In this document: one piece after another, positions 5,189 to 20,682 of the stretch
How the letters are laid out: each line of letters opens with the position of its first letter
Position numbering within the stretch: position 1 is the first letter of the stretch
Virus record (IMG/VR): IMGVR_UViG_3300016665_000418
Span: 1 to 50,654 of that record
From: a virus
Taxonomy: Duplodnaviria; Caudoviricetes
DNA length: 50,654 nucleotides
Direction: 5' to 3' (one strand)
Notes under the pieces: model-generated
What the model saw: the letters and a program-made list of their open reading frames with translations, nothing else
The model's database searches: none
Told to the model about the DNA's origin: nothing
Translations under genes and position numbers: made by a program

Positions 5189-8100
5189 ATGAAGATAGTT
5201 CAGATTAGCGATATACATTGGCGTGGTATTGCAAGGCATGATGAATACACAGAGAGCTTTGAAAGGCTTTTTGAAACGCTACGTCGCAGAGTAAAGCCAG
5301 ACCTTATCATCAATACCGGCGATACATTCCATACAAAGACCCAAGGTATTACGCCCGAGGTCATTGAGAAGCTTTCATGGATGTTTAGAGGGCTTGCTGA
5401 TATCGCTCCGACCATTACAATCCTTGGTAATCATGATGGTAATCTCACCAACTCTGATCGTCAGGATATTGTTTCGCCTATTCATGAAGCTATTAATCAC
5501 GCTGATGCTTACCTTTACAAAAAGTCTGGAACCTATTCCCTGCCAAGGGAAGTAAAGGGAGGTAATCGTTTTGCCCTTCATGTTTTCTCGCCATTTGATG
5601 AAGATGGTTGGAAGAACCTAAAGCCCATTCAAGGTAAGATTAATATTGCCCTATTCCATGGCTGCGTATCTGGTTCAAAGACCGATATGGAGTTCCGTCT
5701 TATTGATGGAGAAAAGGACGTTGCGTTCTTTACTGGAATGGATTTCGTTATGTTGGGCGATATCCATAAGCAACAGTTCCTTGCTTACCGTTTAGATAAG
5801 AAGGGAGCCACAAAGCCTTGGGTAGCATATCCCGGTTCTTTCATTCAGCAAAACTTTGGTGAAGCTGAAACAAAGGGTTTCCTTGTATGGGACATTAAGA
5901 ACGAGAAGGAATGGGACGTAGAGTTCCATGAGCATGAAAATAGAGCGCCATATGTTTCTGTTGATTGGGCAGGAACGGTTAACAGCACTCTACGTCATAT
6001 AGAAAAGACCCGTAAAGAGCGTGCATATATTCCAGGCACACGTTTCCGTATTGTAAGCAATCAGCCTATTCAGCAGGTTGAAGCCCGGCAGCTTCTTAAC
6101 GAGCTAAAGGAACACAAGGGCGCTTCTGAGGTTGTATTCAAATATGACCTTATCAATCGTATGGAAACGATTGAGACAGATGGACACCAAGTATTAAAGA
6201 CCAATCTACGTAATGATCCCGAGGCTCTGGTAAAGCTATATAAGGACTTTATAGAGGCACACAAGGAAAGCTACGTCCTATCAGAAGAACAGCTTAATGA
6301 GGCTTCTAACGTCGTTCGTAGCTATCTTACAAAGCTAAACACAGAAGACGTAGATAATGCGGTTCGTAATGTTTCGTGGAGCCTTAAGAAGCTTAAGTTT
6401 GACAATATCTTCCGTTATGGCGAAGGTAATGAGGTAAGCTTTGATGGATTGGAAGGTGTTATTGGTATCTTTGGTCCTAACAAGATTGGTAAGAGTTCTA
6501 TCATTGCGGCTATCATGTATGCCCTATTCAATACAACAGATAGAGGTCCGCTAAAGGGTGCTCATATCATTAACAAGAATAAGAAACACTGCTCCGCTGA
6601 ACTAACATTCTCCGTTGGAGGCGATGAATATCTTGTTAAGAGAGAGACAATCCGCAATAGCCCAAAGAAAGCTACAAAGAAGGATGATGATAAGACCGTA
6701 ACCAGCCTTAATCTTTATAAGATTGAGAGTGATGGAACTCTTACAGAGAAGAACTCTATCTCCCGTGATGAAACCGATAGAGAGATCCGTAAGCTTGTTG
6801 GACAGCCCCAGGATTTCCTTCTAACTGCTCTATCAAATCAGGGTGGTATCAATAAGTTTATTGAAGAAGGTGCTACCCAGAGAAAGGCTATTCTATCACG
6901 CTTCCTTGACCTTGAGCTTTTTGATAAGCTCAATGTTTATGCGAAGGATGATTATTCGGCGCTCAATGAAAAGACCAAGAAATATATTGGTTTTGATTGG
7001 GCATCTGCTCTCAAGCGTGGGCATCAGGAAGTTGAAGAGATTGAAAAGAAGATTTCTGACATTCAAACAAGCCAACAAGTTCATCTTCAAGAAAGAGACG
7101 AATTGCGTCTCTGGATAATGCAACACCAGAATACCATGCAGACAGTTTCTCTAACCCGTTATAACGAGTTAAAGAACGATATGGAAGCAAAGGAAAAGAC
7201 CCTTGCTTATCTTCTACGTCAAGAACAAGAACACGATCTAAATGTTTCTAATGTTAGAAATGAATTGGATAAAGTTCGTTCTGCTCGTTCAAAGCATGAT
7301 GTTAAGCTATTGCATGAAAAGCTTGAAAAGCTTGATCGTGTAAAGGGTGAACTATCGTCACTTAAGCAATCCTTTGTAAAGGAAACTGAAACATTGGATC
7401 AGCAGAAAAAGTCTGTAAAGAGACTTGAAACTGTTCCCTGTGGTGATAGCTTCCCTACCTGCCGTTTCATTAAGGATAGCCATTCAGATAAGAAGCTAAT
7501 GGCAGCACAAGAAAAGAAGGTTAATGAACTACAGGAGAGCATTAGCGATCTTAATGTTGTAGCCGAACTTCTTATTGAAGAAAAGATTGCCGAAACTCTT
7601 AAGATGGATGAACAGGCATCAAGACTTCAGTTTGAGTTAGAAACAAAACTCAATAAGATCGTCTCAGATAAGACAGTCCGTGAGAAAGAAATTGCTCTTG
7701 TTAAATCTTACCTTGAAAAGACAGAGGGCGAATATAAGAAGCTTAAGGATTTGCTTGCATCTTCTGAGAGAAAAGAATATGACACAAAGAAGTTGACCCT
7801 TGATGTTGTAGTAGAGCACATAGAAGCCAAGGATAGAGAAATGAGAGAGCTATTTGTTTCTCTTGGTGGCAAGAATGAAAAGCTTAAGCAACTAACAAAA
7901 GATCGCATTGAGTGCAAAGCGGATCTTGAAAAGATTAAAATCTATGAAACCGTCCAGCAAGCATTTTCCAAAAATGGTATTCCTGCAATGGTATTAAAAA
8001 CACAATTGCCAGCGATTAACATGGAATTGGCGAAAATATTGGACAATGTAGTAGATTTTAAGGTAAGTTTGGAAACTGATATATCTTCTAATGTAATGGA

Positions 8101-8416
8101 TGTATATATAGAGGATGGGCACTCAAGACGGATTATTGAGTTAGCTTCCGGAATGGAAAAGATGATATGTTCTCTTGCTTTGCGAGTTGCGCTTATTAAT
8201 CTTTCCAGTTTGTCCCGTCCAGATATTTTCATAATAGATGAAGGATTTGGAACATTAGATCAAGATAGTCTAACAAAATGCATGGATTTGTTAACTATGT
8301 TTAAATCATATTTCAAAACGATTATGGTTATAACACACGTAGATCCAATCAAAGAAGTAGCAGATAAGATTATAGACATTTACAATGATGGGTTAGAATC
8401 AAAAGTAGAAGCATGA
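5189..8416 (+). CDS. Mre11/Rad50 (SbcD-SbcC; gp47-gp46) fusion nuclease-ATPase
   Basis: N-terminal phosphoesterase motifs SDIH, TGD, GNHD, GDIH; then Walker A GPNKIGKS, coiled coil, signature ASGMEK, Walker B IIDEGFGTLD, ITH. Confidence 0.93.
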   Translation: MKIVQISDIHWRGIARHDEYTESFERLFETLRRRVKPDLIINTGDTFHTKTQGITPEVIEKLSWMFRGLADIAPTITILGNHDGNLTNSDRQDIVSPIHEAINHADAYLYKKSGTYSLPREVKGGNRFALHVFSPFDEDGWKNLKPIQGKINIALFHGCVSGSKTDMEFRLIDGEKDVAFFTGMDFVMLGDIHKQQFLAYRLDKKGATKPWVAYPGSFIQQNFGEAETKGFLVWDIKNEKEWDVEFHEHENRAPYVSVDWAGTVNSTLRHIEKTRKERAYIPGTRFRIVSNQPIQQVEARQLLNELKEHKGASEVVFKYDLINRMETIETDGHQVLKTNLRNDPEALVKLYKDFIEAHKESYVLSEEQLNEASNVVRSYLTKLNTEDVDNAVRNVSWSLKKLKFDNIFRYGEGNEVSFDGLEGVIGIFGPNKIGKSSIIAAIMYALFNTTDRGPLKGAHIINKNKKHCSAELTFSVGGDEYLVKRETIRNSPKKATKKDDDKTVTSLNLYKIESDGTLTEKNSISRDETDREIRKLVGQPQDFLLTALSNQGGINKFIEEGATQRKAILSRFLDLELFDKLNVYAKDDYSALNEKTKKYIGFDWASALKRGHQEVEEIEKKISDIQTSQQVHLQERDELRLWIMQHQNTMQTVSLTRYNELKNDMEAKEKTLAYLLRQEQEHDLNVSNVRNELDKVRSARSKHDVKLLHEKLEKLDRVKGELSSLKQSFVKETETLDQQKKSVKRLETVPCGDSFPTCRFIKDSHSDKKLMAAQEKKVNELQESISDLNVVAELLIEEKIAETLKMDEQASRLQFELETKLNKIVSDKTVREKEIALVKSYLEKTEGEYKKLKDLLASSERKEYDTKKLTLDVVVEHIEAKDREMRELFVSLGGKNEKLKQLTKDRIECKADLEKIKIYETVQQAFSKNGIPAMVLKTQLPAINMELAKILDNVVDFKVSLETDISSNVMDVYIEDGHSRRIIELASGMEKMICSLALRVALINLSSLSRPDIFIIDEGFGTLDQDSLTKCMDLLTMFKSYFKTIMVITHVDPIKEVADKIIDIYNDGLESKVEA

Positions 8417-13355: not shown

Positions 13356-13730
13356 ATGCCAAGAAAAAAAGTAGACTATAAAATTCCATTCATCAAGGAG
13401 AACGACAAGATAAACAATCTTCCAGCCGGGAGTGTTCCGCATCAAATTGGTCTTTATGAAATGCGTAAACCAAATTGGGAACTCAAATACGATTGGCGTG
13501 AAAACGTTAAGTTTGATGCTAACTTAAAATTTGTTAATATGTATTATGGCGGTAAGATACTTTGGGAAGATACAGAAACCGGCGCACGATATTGGATGAA
13601 TCAGAGTGGTCTTGCGGCTGTATTAAAAGCTAAATCAGTAGTTTATGGAACAGTTTTAGGAACATGGGTCTTTAAGAAACATGGAACCACTTATAGTATC
13701 TTTCCATATATGGAAAAGAGAAGGGGATGA
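13356..13730 (+). CDS. Hypothetical protein; last codons and stop lie inside the tmRNA 5' end
   Basis: 124-aa ORF ending AGG GGA TGA at 13722-13730. Confidence 0.75.
   Translation: MPRKKVDYKIPFIKENDKINNLPAGSVPHQIGLYEMRKPNWELKYDWRENVKFDANLKFVNMYYGGKILWEDTETGARYWMNQSGLAAVLKAKSVVYGTVLGTWVFKKHGTTYSIFPYMEKRRG
13671..13699 (+). promoter_or_regulatory. Putative tmRNA promoter
   Basis: TTTAAG-17-TAGTAT within the upstream ORF. Confidence 0.45.
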
Positions 13731-14075
13731 AATAGATTCGATCAGGAAATGAAGGATGATTTGCATAGTAGCGGGCGTTTATGACCGCTTAAAACCGTAA
13801 ACAACAGTAAGTGCAAACGATAGCTCTTACGCTCTTGCTGCTTGAAAGCAAGCGATTTAAAAGATACGCCGTTTGAGGATCCTTAAATCGTCATTAAACA
13901 AACTCGACCTTGTAGGGATAGTTCCTACTGCCAAGGTTTAAATAATTGGAACCATATCATACACAACCTGCTCTTTGGTCAAGTATATGATGGGTAATAA
14001 ATAAAAGAGATATACTATGTGACAACAGATCATTTGGAGCTTCTTGAGACTGCGGTGCGAATCCGCACATCTCCA
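13723..14075 (+). ncRNA. ssrA: tmRNA (one-piece), tag ANDSSYALAA
   Basis: Acceptor GGGGATG/CATCTCC-A with G3.U70; T-arm TGCGG-TGCGAAT-CCGCA; tag ORF 13813-13845 after TAAGT resume context; 353 nt. Confidence 0.96.
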
Positions 14076-14107
14076 TTTTGCCTTATTTTATAAAGCTTTT
14101 TTATTAC

Positions 14108-15204: not shown

Positions 15205-16521
15205 ATGTTCTGGGATACGATTAATCAGGCTTTCGCACAATATATTCCAACCTATACGGATGGAACGCAAGTTTCCGTTGTTGGACGTGTTCTGTCTTAT
15301 CGTAAGATGGGTGGTGTAGCATTCGGTCATATTTCTGACAATAGTGATGCAAAGATCCAATTTGCATTTAATAAGAAGATGATGGATGAAGCCAACTTCA
15401 AGGAATGGTCAGCTATCCCTCATATTGGCGATATTGTTGGGATTAACGGGGAGGTATGGACTACCTCTACCGGAGAAAAGACTGTATTGGTCAATAAGGG
15501 CTTCCAGAGGCTCCAGAAGGCTTCTGTAGGCTTCCCTGACAAGTGGCATGGTATGACCGATCCAGAGCTTGTAAGGCGCAAGAGGTGGCTGGAATGCGCC
15601 ACTAATCCAGAGAGTCGCAAGCTATATCGGAATAGGAGTAAGCTAATCAATACTATTCGTAACTTCCTTGATGAACAGGATTTTATGGAAGTGGAGACGC
15701 CTACGCTTACTCCGCAAGCAAGTGGCGCCCAGGCTCGTCCGTTTGTCACTCATCATAATGCTCTTGATGCAGATTTCTATCTTCGTATTGCGCCCGAGAC
15801 TTATCTTAAGCGTATGACTGCTGCTGGTTTTGATCGTGTATTCGAGATTGGCAAGCAGTTCCGAAATGAAGGTATTGATCCATCGCATCTACAGGAGTTT
15901 ACTTCTCTTGAATGGTATGCATCATATTGGGATTATTGTGATAACATGAAGCTTTTCCGAAATATGCTTTATTATCTTTGGAAGAGCTTTGATAGAACAG
16001 AAAAGGATATTCTTGCCAAGCTTGAAAGTTGGGCACAGGCACCAGTTGTAGAATATCGTCAACTATTCATGGAACATACTGGACGTAATCCAGATGATAT
16101 GTCTGGCAAGGAAGCGGATCAGCTATTCAAGACCGCTGTTCGTCCAAAGCTTATTGATCCAGTATTCATCACAGATTATCCGGCTCATATGTCTCCAATG
16201 GCAGCAAGGCATCCCCATGACCCTAATACGGTTCAGCAATGGCAGTTTGTTGTAGATGGATGGGAAGTGGTTAAGTGTTATACAGAGCTTACTGATCCCC
16301 TTCTACAGCGTCAGCTACTTGAGCAGCAGATGCAAGAGCGAGCAAATGGCGATGATGAAGCCATGATGATTGAGGAAGATTTCCTTGAATGCATGGAGCA
16401 CGGGATGCCTCCGCAGAGTGGTTGTGGTGTTGGAATTGACCGTTTGGCTTCTCTACTTTTCGGCGTCCCCAATCTACGTGATGTAGTATTCTTCCCTACA
16501 CTTAAGGCAAATAGCCAATGA
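15205..16521 (+). CDS. lysS: Lysyl-tRNA synthetase, class II
   Basis: OB-fold (GDIVGING), YLRIAPETYLKR, FRNEGID..H.QEFT, HGMPPQSGCGVGIDRL. Confidence 0.95.
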   Translation: MFWDTINQAFAQYIPTYTDGTQVSVVGRVLSYRKMGGVAFGHISDNSDAKIQFAFNKKMMDEANFKEWSAIPHIGDIVGINGEVWTTSTGEKTVLVNKGFQRLQKASVGFPDKWHGMTDPELVRRKRWLECATNPESRKLYRNRSKLINTIRNFLDEQDFMEVETPTLTPQASGAQARPFVTHHNALDADFYLRIAPETYLKRMTAAGFDRVFEIGKQFRNEGIDPSHLQEFTSLEWYASYWDYCDNMKLFRNMLYYLWKSFDRTEKDILAKLESWAQAPVVEYRQLFMEHTGRNPDDMSGKEADQLFKTAVRPKLIDPVFITDYPAHMSPMAARHPHDPNTVQQWQFVVDGWEVVKCYTELTDPLLQRQLLEQQMQERANGDDEAMMIEEDFLECMEHGMPPQSGCGVGIDRLASLLFGVPNLRDVVFFPTLKANSQ

Positions 16522-19069: not shown

Positions 19070-19098
19070 TTTACAAAGTTAACTTCCTCAACTATATT
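19070..19098 (+). promoter_or_regulatory. Sigma70-type promoter for the tRNA-Ala/ncRNA unit
   Basis: A-tract + TTTACA-17-TATATT. Confidence 0.75.
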
Positions 19099-19115
19099 TA
19101 AAGAGTGAAGTGAAT

Positions 19116-19186
19116 GGGTCGGTAAGCTAATGGGAAACTGGTGCCTTTGCACGGCGCACTTGTGAGTTCGATTCTCACCCGATCCA
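19116..19186 (+). tRNA. tRNA-Ala(UGC)
   Basis: GGGTCGG/CCGATCC acceptor with G3.U70; GTGCC-TTTGCAC-GGCGC anticodon arm. Confidence 0.93.
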
Positions 19187-19204
19187 ATAGTTGATAACTT
19201 AATA

Positions 19205-19897
19205 TTTAGATCCTATCCGATGGACCGTTCATCGTCTTTGAGGTCCGATAAGGCAATGGGATTAAAGGAGCCGTAAGTAGCCGCCAGCGAACTAATGTTA
19301 AGATTATTATTTATTGGGTATAATGCTGGTTGGGGAAAATCAAGAGCAATCTTGTAAATCGGAAATATTATAATATGTAACCCTAACATGATGATTAGGG
19401 ATAATCAGAAGCGACCTGATTAGCCGTGAAGATCAAGGTATTCCTTTCTTGATAATAATGGTGACAAAGCCCCTTCTCGGGAAAGAGAACGCAGATAGAA
19501 GCGTTAAGCAAGCAAGCCTACTTGTTTATGTTTATGGAACTTGTATCTATCATTTTTATAAACTCAGTATACTGTATGTGCGATGTATGATATGCTGAGT
19601 TTATATTCCGCTTTAGCTCAGTTGGTAGAGCGTTCGGCTGTGGAGGTTGAATACGTGTTCTGTTGGTGCAAACCCAAAAACCTCAAGGATAACCGGATGG
19701 TCCCTGGTTCGAGTCCAGGAGGCGGAGTTTGACGTGTCATTTAGCAGGTGACTAATAAGGTTGGTTTCCTTATGATTGAAGCAGGGTTGCTCCTGTAATA
19801 AAAACTCCAAAGCCTGGAAGGCTCGTTGAGATAGCAGCGAAGTAGAAACTTATGGAGGGAACTTCACCCGTGGATATAAAGACTACACTATCATTTC
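19205..19897 (+). ncRNA. Large structured ncRNA (GOLLD-like candidate) surrounding a tRNA; boundaries approximate
   Basis: No plus-strand ORF; more than a dozen visible helices, a GNRA-capped hairpin, loop-loop and 3'-end pseudoknot complementarity; bounded by promoter and terminator. Confidence 0.65.
19607..19727 (+). tRNA. tRNA-Asn(GUU) with a 48-nt insertion (19642-19689) splitting the anticodon; alternative register gives His(GUG)
   Basis: TCCGCTT/AGGCGGA acceptor plus G73 (Asn-type); CTGT+TAA restores a 7-nt loop and a 73-nt tRNA. Confidence 0.8.
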
Positions 19898-19899
19898 AT

Positions 19900-19937
19900 A
19901 AGCCCCGATGTTTAACCGCATCGGGGTTTTATTTTTT
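19900..19937 (+). terminator. Intrinsic terminator
   Basis: AAGCCCCGATG/CATCGGGGTTT stem plus T-run. Confidence 0.85.
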
Positions 19938-19959: not shown

Positions 19960-20682
19960 ATGCATAAAATATTTTTAATAGCTGCTCTTATATTGTTAAT
20001 ACCAAATGCGGCGTATGCATATACACAAAAATATACTTCAACCGGCAGATTGGTTCGTTGGAATCGTTCCGAAATTGAACTAACTGTCATTAGAGTTGAT
20101 AGTTGTCGTTCCTGTCCAGATGAAACAGAAGTTGTTGGTTCTTTACAAAGAGCGGCTTCAACATGGAACGAAATACCAACATCACCAACCATTAACATCA
20201 TAGAACGTTCTGGTAATTCAGAGTGGGGAATAGACGGTGTTAATGGAGTTTATTTTGTAAGAGATTGGCCATTTTCTTTTCGTGCATTGGCTATTACTCT
20301 AACCAGTTATAATGAAAATACTGGTGAGTTAATAGATACAGATGTAATCATCAACGGTGAAATGCCGTTTGGTTTGTCCGGAGAGAGAAATCAATATGAT
20401 TTAGATACTGTGCTTACTCATGAACTTGGACACGTTCTTGGATTGGACGAAAGTAGTGTCCCAGGTGCCACTATGTTTCCAAATACGAGAAGAGGCGAAA
20501 CTGATAGACGTGAGTTATCAACTGATGATGTAGATGGAATATTGTCCATATATCAAACTGTTCCTACTCCCGGTTGCAACATAACAAGAAGAAAAACTTC
20601 TTTTAATGGAAGCATCATTTTTTTGATATTGTTGCTTTTAGTCAGAAAATATTCAAGTTTCTTTTTTAAGCTATCAACATGA
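19960..20682 (+). CDS. Matrixin (M10)-family secreted metalloprotease with MYXO-CTERM-like tail
   Basis: Signal peptide, THELGHVLGL, Met-turn ATMFP, C-terminal GC...IIFLILLLLVRK; start moved to ATG 19960. Confidence 0.85.
   Translation: MHKIFLIAALILLIPNAAYAYTQKYTSTGRLVRWNRSEIELTVIRVDSCRSCPDETEVVGSLQRAASTWNEIPTSPTINIIERSGNSEWGIDGVNGVYFVRDWPFSFRALAITLTSYNENTGELIDTDVIINGEMPFGLSGERNQYDLDTVLTHELGHVLGLDESSVPGATMFPNTRRGETDRRELSTDDVDGILSIYQTVPTPGCNITRRKTSFNGSIIFLILLLLVRKYSSFFFKLST

Follow-up and report, generated by a model that had tools for sequence, protein, structure and literature searches.

The locus and its phage

The window, i.e. the whole stretch of 50,654 nucleotides analysed here, is a linear virus record with an estimated completeness of 14%. 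T4-like genes for a portal protein, a prohead protease, a major capsid protein, and a terminase are found on it, along with genes serving translation (IF1, a class II tRNA synthetase, a tmRNA, and seven tRNAs). The source is a T4-like huge phage, and the RNA locus belongs to a clade of giant bacterial viruses. The tmRNA (13723-14078) shares a translation region with the class II synthetase gene (15205-16521), which is lysyl-tRNA-synthetase-like and shortened to 438 aa. Since the sources of the relatives name this enzyme lysyl-tRNA synthetase, it gives no backing to the Asn identity of the tRNA treated below. Another gene (5189-8416) joins a metallophosphoesterase to an SMC-like ATPase in one chain of 1075 aa, a fusion of the Mre11-Rad50 or gp47-gp46 type.

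A single promoter-to-terminator unit comprises, in this order, a tRNA-Ala, a non-coding RNA denoted RNA A, a tRNA-Asn interrupted by a short insert, and a second non-coding RNA denoted RNA B. Its features are:

19070..19098, + strand: sigma-70-like promoter, TTTACA-17-TATATT (10/12 match; such sites alone occur at chance level)
19115..19187, + strand: tRNA-Ala(UGC), first gene of the unit
19210..19552, + strand: RNA A, a covarying ncRNA of ~343 nt with three pseudoknots, no Rfam family (12/13 loci)
19229..19394, + strand: pseudoknot PK1, TCATCG (19229-19234) with the loop TGATGA (19389-19394); 7-bp register 19229-35/19388-94
19264..19447, + strand: pseudoknot PK2, AAAGGAG (19264-19270) with the loop TTCCTTT (19441-19447); 6/7 columns compensatory
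19465..19552, + strand: end module of RNA A, consisting of AAAGCCCC, a GGAA hairpin, a GATAG-loop hairpin (19494-98), a stem, and a terminal CTATC (19547-51)
19557..19605, + strand: optional long hairpin between RNA A and the tRNA (z -5.8; 9/12 A loci)
19607..19641, + strand: 5' exon of tRNA-Asn(GUU), tRNA positions 1-35
19642..19689, + strand: 48-nt mini-tRNA-shaped insert at anticodon position 35/36
19690..19727, + strand: 3' exon of tRNA-Asn, positions 36-73, with G73 and no encoded CCA
19731..19893, + strand: RNA B, a conserved ncRNA of ~163 nt, no Rfam family (11/13 loci)
19801..19893, + strand: end module of RNA B, parallel to that of RNA A, with the GATAG loop at 19830-34 and the terminal CTATC at 19888-92
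19900..19929, + strand: intrinsic terminator, found in the window and covarying in relatives

A preliminary description of this region had named a tRNA-Ala, a split tRNA, and a terminator, which were confirmed at 19115-19187, 19607-19727, and 19900-19929, respectively, and the motifs it named lie where it put them (19/19). It had called the region free of ORFs; a single ORF of at least 70 aa touches it, starting at 19852 and crossing the terminator. Judged from the sequence, translation more likely begins at an in-frame ATG at 19960.

The sigma-70-like motif recurs 5' of the tRNA-Ala in five relatives (L002, L003, L090, L091, and L094). The tRNA-Ala(UGC) of the window has an odd D-arm and a variable region of just four bases; it is kept in L002, L090, L091, and L094, and other tRNA-Ala genes are found in L003, L004, and L006. 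Between tRNA-Ala and RNA A (19188-19204) lies a worn copy of a motif that reads GCTCTTTAAAA or GTTCTTTAAAA in relatives, where it directly follows the tRNA-Ala (L003, L002, L091, and L093). A similar motif is located 5' of the GOLLD RNA in L097 (901-915). The motif resembles the boxA antiterminator of rRNA operons, as in the spacer between tRNA-Ala and the large rRNA.

Related loci and the exchangeable tRNA slot

Relatives were sought via a neighbouring protein, via DNA patterns in viral contigs, and in one metagenome scan, with duplicates merged. This yielded 12 distinct loci (L002, L003, L004, L006, L007, L016, L035, L090, L091, L093, L094, and L095). True homologs made up 6 of 41 matches to a 15-base pattern and 5 of 8 matches to a second one, the rest being dropped as chance; a further DNA pattern returned six loci already known and one chance match. 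Together with the window (13 loci), RNA A is present in 12, RNA B in 11, and both in 10. The contig of L006 stops after the tRNA; both sides are visible in 12 loci.

A tRNA-Asn always lies between the RNA A and RNA B sides, and this slot is exchangeable, ranging from 0 to ~1.1 kb: seven loci carry a plain tRNA, three an intron of 206-207 nt, and three the 48-nt insert. The 206-207 nt introns (L004, L007, and L035) are of group I; the one in L004 matches RF00028, and on visual comparison those in L007 and L035 are nearly the same. In L002, L004, L007, L016, and L090, the slot holds endonuclease-like ORFs (115-215 aa; HNH-like or other, by eye) and duplicated tRNA stubs. It looks like a homing hot spot; the ORF precedes the tRNA with the mini-intron in L090 and the one with the group I intron in L004 and L007. 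Besides tRNAs and the tmRNA, Rfam scans of the window and 23 loci returned nothing but a single group I intron and a single hammerhead. The latter, of type II and at gathering score, lies on an unrelated contig (L008, 1856-1919).

Fold and conservation of RNA A

RNA A is conserved and covaries. Its identity across relatives is 59-100%, and the 5' part of the stretch folds better than chance (z -2.9; 0/100 shuffles). A model of 70 pairs, built from the same seven diverse sequences on which it was scored and with some helices blurred by alignment gaps, has 92.7% of cells paired and compensatory changes in 24/70 pairs. This level of covariation was reached in 0/500 shuffles, and slid controls of the model were 33-48% paired. 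Four of the helices named in the preliminary description (CCCTAA/TTAGGG, TAATCAG/CTGATTA, ATCAAG/CTTGAT, and, after the tRNA, GCAGG/CCTGT) covary.

Only two of the 60,031 possible 7-bp registers show pairing in 11 or more of the 12 sequences. They form two long-range pseudoknots of RNA A, which that description had overlooked along with the repeated end module. PK1 is 100% paired in seven sequences, with five of its six pairs invariant and one showing a one-sided change. The compensatory changes in PK2 come from two independent variants (L003/L093 and L035). The third pseudoknot joins the loop 19494-98 to the 3' end at 19547-51 and is invariant.

Two elements of the 5' part are read differently from before. 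A three-way junction with kissing GACC/GGTC loops had been proposed. GGACC/GGTCC is more plausibly a plain nested helix, since the CATC strand is invariant and pairs distally with 19389-19394, and its local partner GATG changes in L004, L095, and L035. The 15-bp stem at 19557-19605 is real (z -5.8) but does not belong to the core, as it is missing in L003, L093, and L035.

Three freshwater studies include RNA runs (X7, X8, and X9) whose assembled contigs cover RNA A. The contigs measure 401, 402, and 293 nt at depths of 3.4, 37.3, and 13.2, respectively; on the RNA A of a relative they start at 19210 and reach 19556 or 19523. Assembled contigs carry no information on strand, ends, or level, and the runs were found through this very stretch, so they give no more than a hint that RNA A is expressed; that these runs show no cover on RNA B and the flanking genes carries no weight as evidence. 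Run X5 covers A, B, and the flanking genes alike at a depth of 2-4 and marks no distinct RNA, and X1 and X2 are probably DNA.

RNA B and the parallel end modules

RNA B is conserved, with an identity of 79-99% across loci. All modelled helices are paired in 7/7 sequences, and four columns show compensatory change. Of the CTCCA/TGGAG helix proposed earlier, CCA/TGG is kept in 7/7 sequences, but the remaining pairs are not. The 3' part of the stretch folds no better than chance (z -0.05) and rests on conservation. Judged by its sequence, it is real as a conserved element, and its fold is less well proven than that of RNA A.

The 3' ends of A and B are built alike. Both modules, of ~90 nt each, run from AAAG(C/T)CC through a GGAA-loop hairpin to a GATAG exactly ten bases on, situated in a second loop closed by GCG, followed by a stem and CTATC. 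A descriptor of this arrangement, applied to both strands of the window, matches A and B only; it also matches all homologs and 1/100,000 shuffles of B. An 18-base gapped pattern has two matches in the window, namely A and B, and 0 in 100 shuffles; across IMG/VR, it detects 10 stretches of this clade and 13 unrelated ones. The likeness was spotted post hoc, and the descriptor and pattern tests were designed after both ends had been seen. Tests free of that bias did not reach significance. A model of the A module aligned B in register when run against the window, with 10 bits, an E-value of 2.6, and rank 4, which is not significant; the B-module model does not recover A, and pairwise alignment of A with B gave a z of at most 2.1 over 24 pairs, likewise not significant. 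Neither a shared-motif scan of viral contigs (no third member of the pair) nor models of both modules run on 23 virus records (no more copies) extended the set. Two weak model matches, L115 and L121, turned out not to be the module.

That the end modules constitute a shared domain has a somewhat better than even chance. The domain, in which the GATAG loop would pair with the terminal CTATC, might have arisen by duplication, and it could cap each 3' end or bind a common partner.

Two RNAs or one

The preliminary description had assumed one continuous RNA of ~700 nt wrapped around the tRNA, which is not borne out by a covarying helix between A and B. In the ten loci holding both halves, no A-B helix of at least 5 bp with convincing compensatory change was detected; four cross-candidates show a change, all of them G-U-rich. 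That A and B are two separate RNAs is regarded as probable. The operon transcript would be cut at the ends of the tRNA, with RNase P acting at its 5' end and 3' trimming following, so that A and B would be freed as separate molecules.

Set against this is the notion of a single bipartite RNA in a new sequence family, whose halves cofold around the tRNA-Asn linker as in GOLLD. It could point to the joint occurrence of A and B in 10/12 loci with both sides visible, to their common promoter and terminator, to the tRNA in the linker of 3/3 real GOLLD loci (cf. the part of 10.1101/2024.12.08.627333 considered here), and to invariant complementarities between the halves (19479-84/19765-70 and 19412-17/19758-63). 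The latter never vary, however, and are hence uninformative, and 5-6 bp candidates of this sort number in the dozens. A and B were also each found alone once. In L090, A is present, B is deleted after 12 nt, and a terminator stands behind the tRNA; this contig is short, and the deletion may have cost the RNA its function. In L016, B stands behind a tRNA-Asn and an ORF, and the 1.9 kb upstream (2 kb of contig examined) hold other tRNAs and no A. Furthermore, each half has its own closed end module, and the linker accommodates HNH genes and group I introns. One RNA carrying the tRNA is thus a possible but weaker reading than two RNAs, and a doubtful one.

The insert in tRNA-Asn

After joining of the exons, ARAGORN calls a tRNA-Asn(gtt). 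The insertion site between positions 35 and 36 is fixed by comparison with L003, in which the insert is exactly absent; other cuts, giving Ile(GAU) or His(GUG), were rejected, as the tRNA body matches the plain tRNA-Asn of L003 and has G73. The insert itself resembles a mini-tRNA covering positions 1-76, with a G1.A72 mismatch, an acceptor stem of 6 bp, a T-stem, and a T-loop; its 3' strand of 16 nt corresponds to positions 61-76 and ends in A. It is identical in L090 and L091, and the tRNA body differs in L091, which rules out an assembly error and shows that the insert is not confined to a single tRNA.

An exon-only pattern of tRNA-Asn retrieved 17 stretches, 12 of which (7 distinct) harbor mini-tRNA inserts of 45-50 nt and one build, along with three tandem tRNAs and two inserts of other kinds. 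A shape pattern, which imposes G1, the T-loop, and A73, added four inserts, including ones in tRNA-Lys and tRNA-Arg. Among 12 distinct inserts, the acceptor pairs 2-5 and T-stem pairs 50-53 are intact throughout despite letter changes, and pair 1-72 is mismatched in 11. The strand after the T-loop comprises 16 nt (nine inserts) or 15 nt (three). One insert ends in ACCA; the last base is G in seven and another base in five. Removal at 35/36 results in a normal tRNA called by ARAGORN in 12/12 cases.

Several single cases complement this picture. Inserts of this type are also located in tRNA-Lys(UUU) and tRNA-Arg(UCU) (L077, L078, and L079), the one in L077 having a full 7-bp acceptor and an ACCA end, and every tRNA seen with a mini-tRNA insert has U36. 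In L058 (1618-1756), the first tRNA-Asn gene is directly followed by another tRNA-Asn-like one, whose variable arm is long and which is likewise split at 35/36 by a mini-tRNA insert of 50 nt. The anticodon loops of tRNA-Asn in L062 and L063 contain hairpin inserts of another kind (33-34 nt). A mini-intron scan of GTDB genomes returned three matches, all false, and no true case.

Known intron classes fit less well. Group I introns (RF00028) occupy the same tRNA-Asn site in the relatives L004, L007, and L035, and the 48-nt insert has neither an RF00028 match nor a catalytic core or P1 guide, and a G at its end is not obligatory. An archaeal-type intron with a bulge-helix-bulge is not apparent by eye, as bases 32-35 cannot form a 4-bp helix with the insert end. 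The build that does fit is the Lak-type mini-tRNA, with an acceptor stem, a T-arm, a 3' end at position 76, and an anticodon loop restored on removal. In Lak megaphages, "enigmatic" tRNA introns were described, one of them possibly encoding a tRNA, with no mechanism given in the part of the article considered here (Devoto et al., 2019; PMC6784885). These are likewise anticodon-loop inserts in tRNAs of huge phages, and several of those in Table S6 of that article end, by eye, in a T-loop and an acceptor-like strand. As far as this table shows, the Lak inserts with a T-arm are about twice as long or more and bear an extra 5' hairpin, whereas the insert at 35/36 is a minimal form of 45-50 nt. The word 'intron' is absent from the main text of PMC7162821.

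Proposed removal of the insert

It is proposed that the 48-nt insert is a mobile mini-tRNA intron, independent of A and B, and that nucleases acting on tRNA ends would measure it from its T-loop, as they do in a tRNA. RNase P would cleave ahead of position 1, and cleavage behind position 76 would fall to RNase E or a variant of RNase Z. Some RNase Z enzymes cut after position 76. Such cuts would leave 3'-OH and 5'-phosphate ends, on which an ATP-dependent ligase of the Rnl1 or Rnl2 type could seal the exons to tRNA-Asn(GUU). Of 11 mini-intron records, 8 encode a member of the Rnl2 family that scores over the cut-off and 7 an Rnl1, with comparison records that are just 8-25% complete and form no fair control; RtcB was found in 0/17 virus records. 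These counts are in keeping with a ligation of 3'-OH and 5'-phosphate ends. No Rnl1/Rnl2 ligase is present on the 14% of the genome covered by the window's own record.

The insert might instead never be removed and either inactivate the tRNA or turn it into a decoy with two T-arms. This would agree with the RNA contigs, which stem from relatives only and include no spliced product of this phage, and with the folding of the insert alone, which is no better than that of shuffles (z 0.0). Retention is nevertheless unlikely: in 12/12 cases, taking the insert out at 35/36 leaves a tRNA that is intact and has a normal anticodon loop, the exons are without decay, and relatives have a group I intron at the same site. 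An apparent intron-skipping joint in X5 belongs to another tRNA.

If removal follows the proposed route, the mini-intron provides an exact and testable splice rule for the Lak phage inserts, for which the 2019 description offered no explanation. Inside one phage clade, the mini-intron and a group I intron alternate at the same site.

RNA A and RNA B are unlikely to act on the tRNA

The preliminary description had suggested that the RNA carries or processes the split tRNA. A complex knotted fold adjoining a tRNA would indeed suit a ribozyme or guide serving tRNA-Asn maturation or excision of the insert, and B begins within ~5 nt of the discriminator in most loci. Yet no ribozyme family was matched, A lies at no fixed distance from the tRNA (0-55 nt or more), and B follows an ORF in L002 and L016. 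Plain, group-I-split, and mini-intron-split tRNA-Asn are all flanked by A and B, and the modules of both RNAs are absent from seven virus records that are at least 90% complete, six of which have mini-introns. It is thus unlikely that A and B splice the insert, and a role as ribozyme or guide in general is judged very improbable. Conversely, relatives with a group I intron or nothing at the insertion site indicate that A and B do not depend on the insert. The suggested processing of the split tRNA is accordingly not supported.

Relation to GOLLD and ROOL, and possible functions

GOLLD, too, is a large ornate phage ncRNA found in tRNA clusters, and it shows the layout 5' part - tRNA - 3' part seen here (L097-L099; sections considered of 10.1101/2024.12.08.627333 and PMC12990946). 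ROOL is likewise ornate, has three pseudoknots, and occurs near tRNAs, according to the part of PMC5737381 considered. The analysis supports a new large phage ncRNA that covaries and occupies the tRNA-operon niche of GOLLD and ROOL; the resemblance to GOLLD, taken as membership, was not upheld. Neither RF02032 (GOLLD, gathering 150 bits) nor RF03087 (ROOL, gathering 99.1 bits) matched the window at E<=10. The positive controls scored 195 bits (L097) and 188 bits (L098) for GOLLD and 130 bits (L101) for ROOL. L097, L098, and L099 are real GOLLD loci, each with a tRNA in the linker; on these, the profiles of A and B scored about 0 bits, and on L101 at most 2.7 bits. GOLLD and ROOL consensus motifs are absent from A and B. 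GOLLD has a conserved 3' domain of ~290 nt with motifs after its linker, whereas B comprises 163 nt and lacks them; in contrast to GOLLD, the larger and better covarying part lies 5' of the tRNA here, and the total without linker is ~510 nt. The ends of ROOL are joined by a long helix and its linker is helix-closed; neither applies to A and B, which have no supported cross-helix.

No paper describing RNA A or B was found among the titles and abstracts searched. Six supplements of the IMG/VR candidate-RNA catalogue (PMC10690425) contain no match to four short motifs, with files 1, 2, and 4 lying outside this comparison. The motifs in the part of the catalogue considered are at most 151 nt long, and its remaining files may include fragments of A or B.

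Both GOLLD and ROOL assemble into homo-oligomeric cages made of RNA only; that A and B would form oligomers is pure analogy. A and B are likely to be abundant RNAs with a structural role like that of GOLLD and ROOL, and they probably represent a new family of ornate phage RNAs of this kind, existing as a long and a short form. In its entirety, the favoured reading is that A and B are conserved structured ncRNAs, separately released, which would serve as GOLLD/ROOL-like abundant structural RNAs and not as tRNA ribozymes, and that the insert is a mobile mini-tRNA intron that would be spliced out; this composite is an evenly balanced proposition.

Two further explanations concern what A and B are. 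A highly diverged member of GOLLD or ROOL would share their niche in tRNA operons of large phages, the similar total length, and the several pseudoknots, but the failure to match at E<=10, the near-zero profile scores on control loci, and the missing consensus hallmarks make this scarcely credible. Less remote, though still improbable, is that the end modules are protein sponges, e.g. for a GGA-binding regulator of the CsrA type, with the remainder of each RNA serving as a scaffold. CsrA prefers GGA in loops, and in the aligned sequences each module exposes one GGA in a hairpin loop and holds a second one in its last stem. Against this, just two GGA per RNA are present, GGA is common, and the pseudoknots of A would be left unexplained.

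A bolder version of the favoured reading can be envisaged: as the long and the short member of an undescribed family, A and B would assemble during infection, via the shared pseudoknotted end module, into a particle that consists of RNA only and contains both. The intervening tRNA would mature by a "tRNA inside a tRNA" route, with cuts at positions 1 and 76 of the insert and ATP-dependent ligation, a mode of splicing so far not demonstrated in bacteria. This is a long shot. As a smaller, unrelated family in the niche of GOLLD and ROOL, A and B would offer an inexpensive way to probe what RNAs of this kind do. Having two forms, long and short, with a common 90-nt module, together with strains keeping only one of them, would allow a test of which part is the working unit.

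Among the GOLLD controls, the homolog in L099 (1501-1994) lies below the Rfam cut-off (114.6 bits) and carries a tRNA-Ile(UAU) in its linker; the same phage also has a mini-intron.
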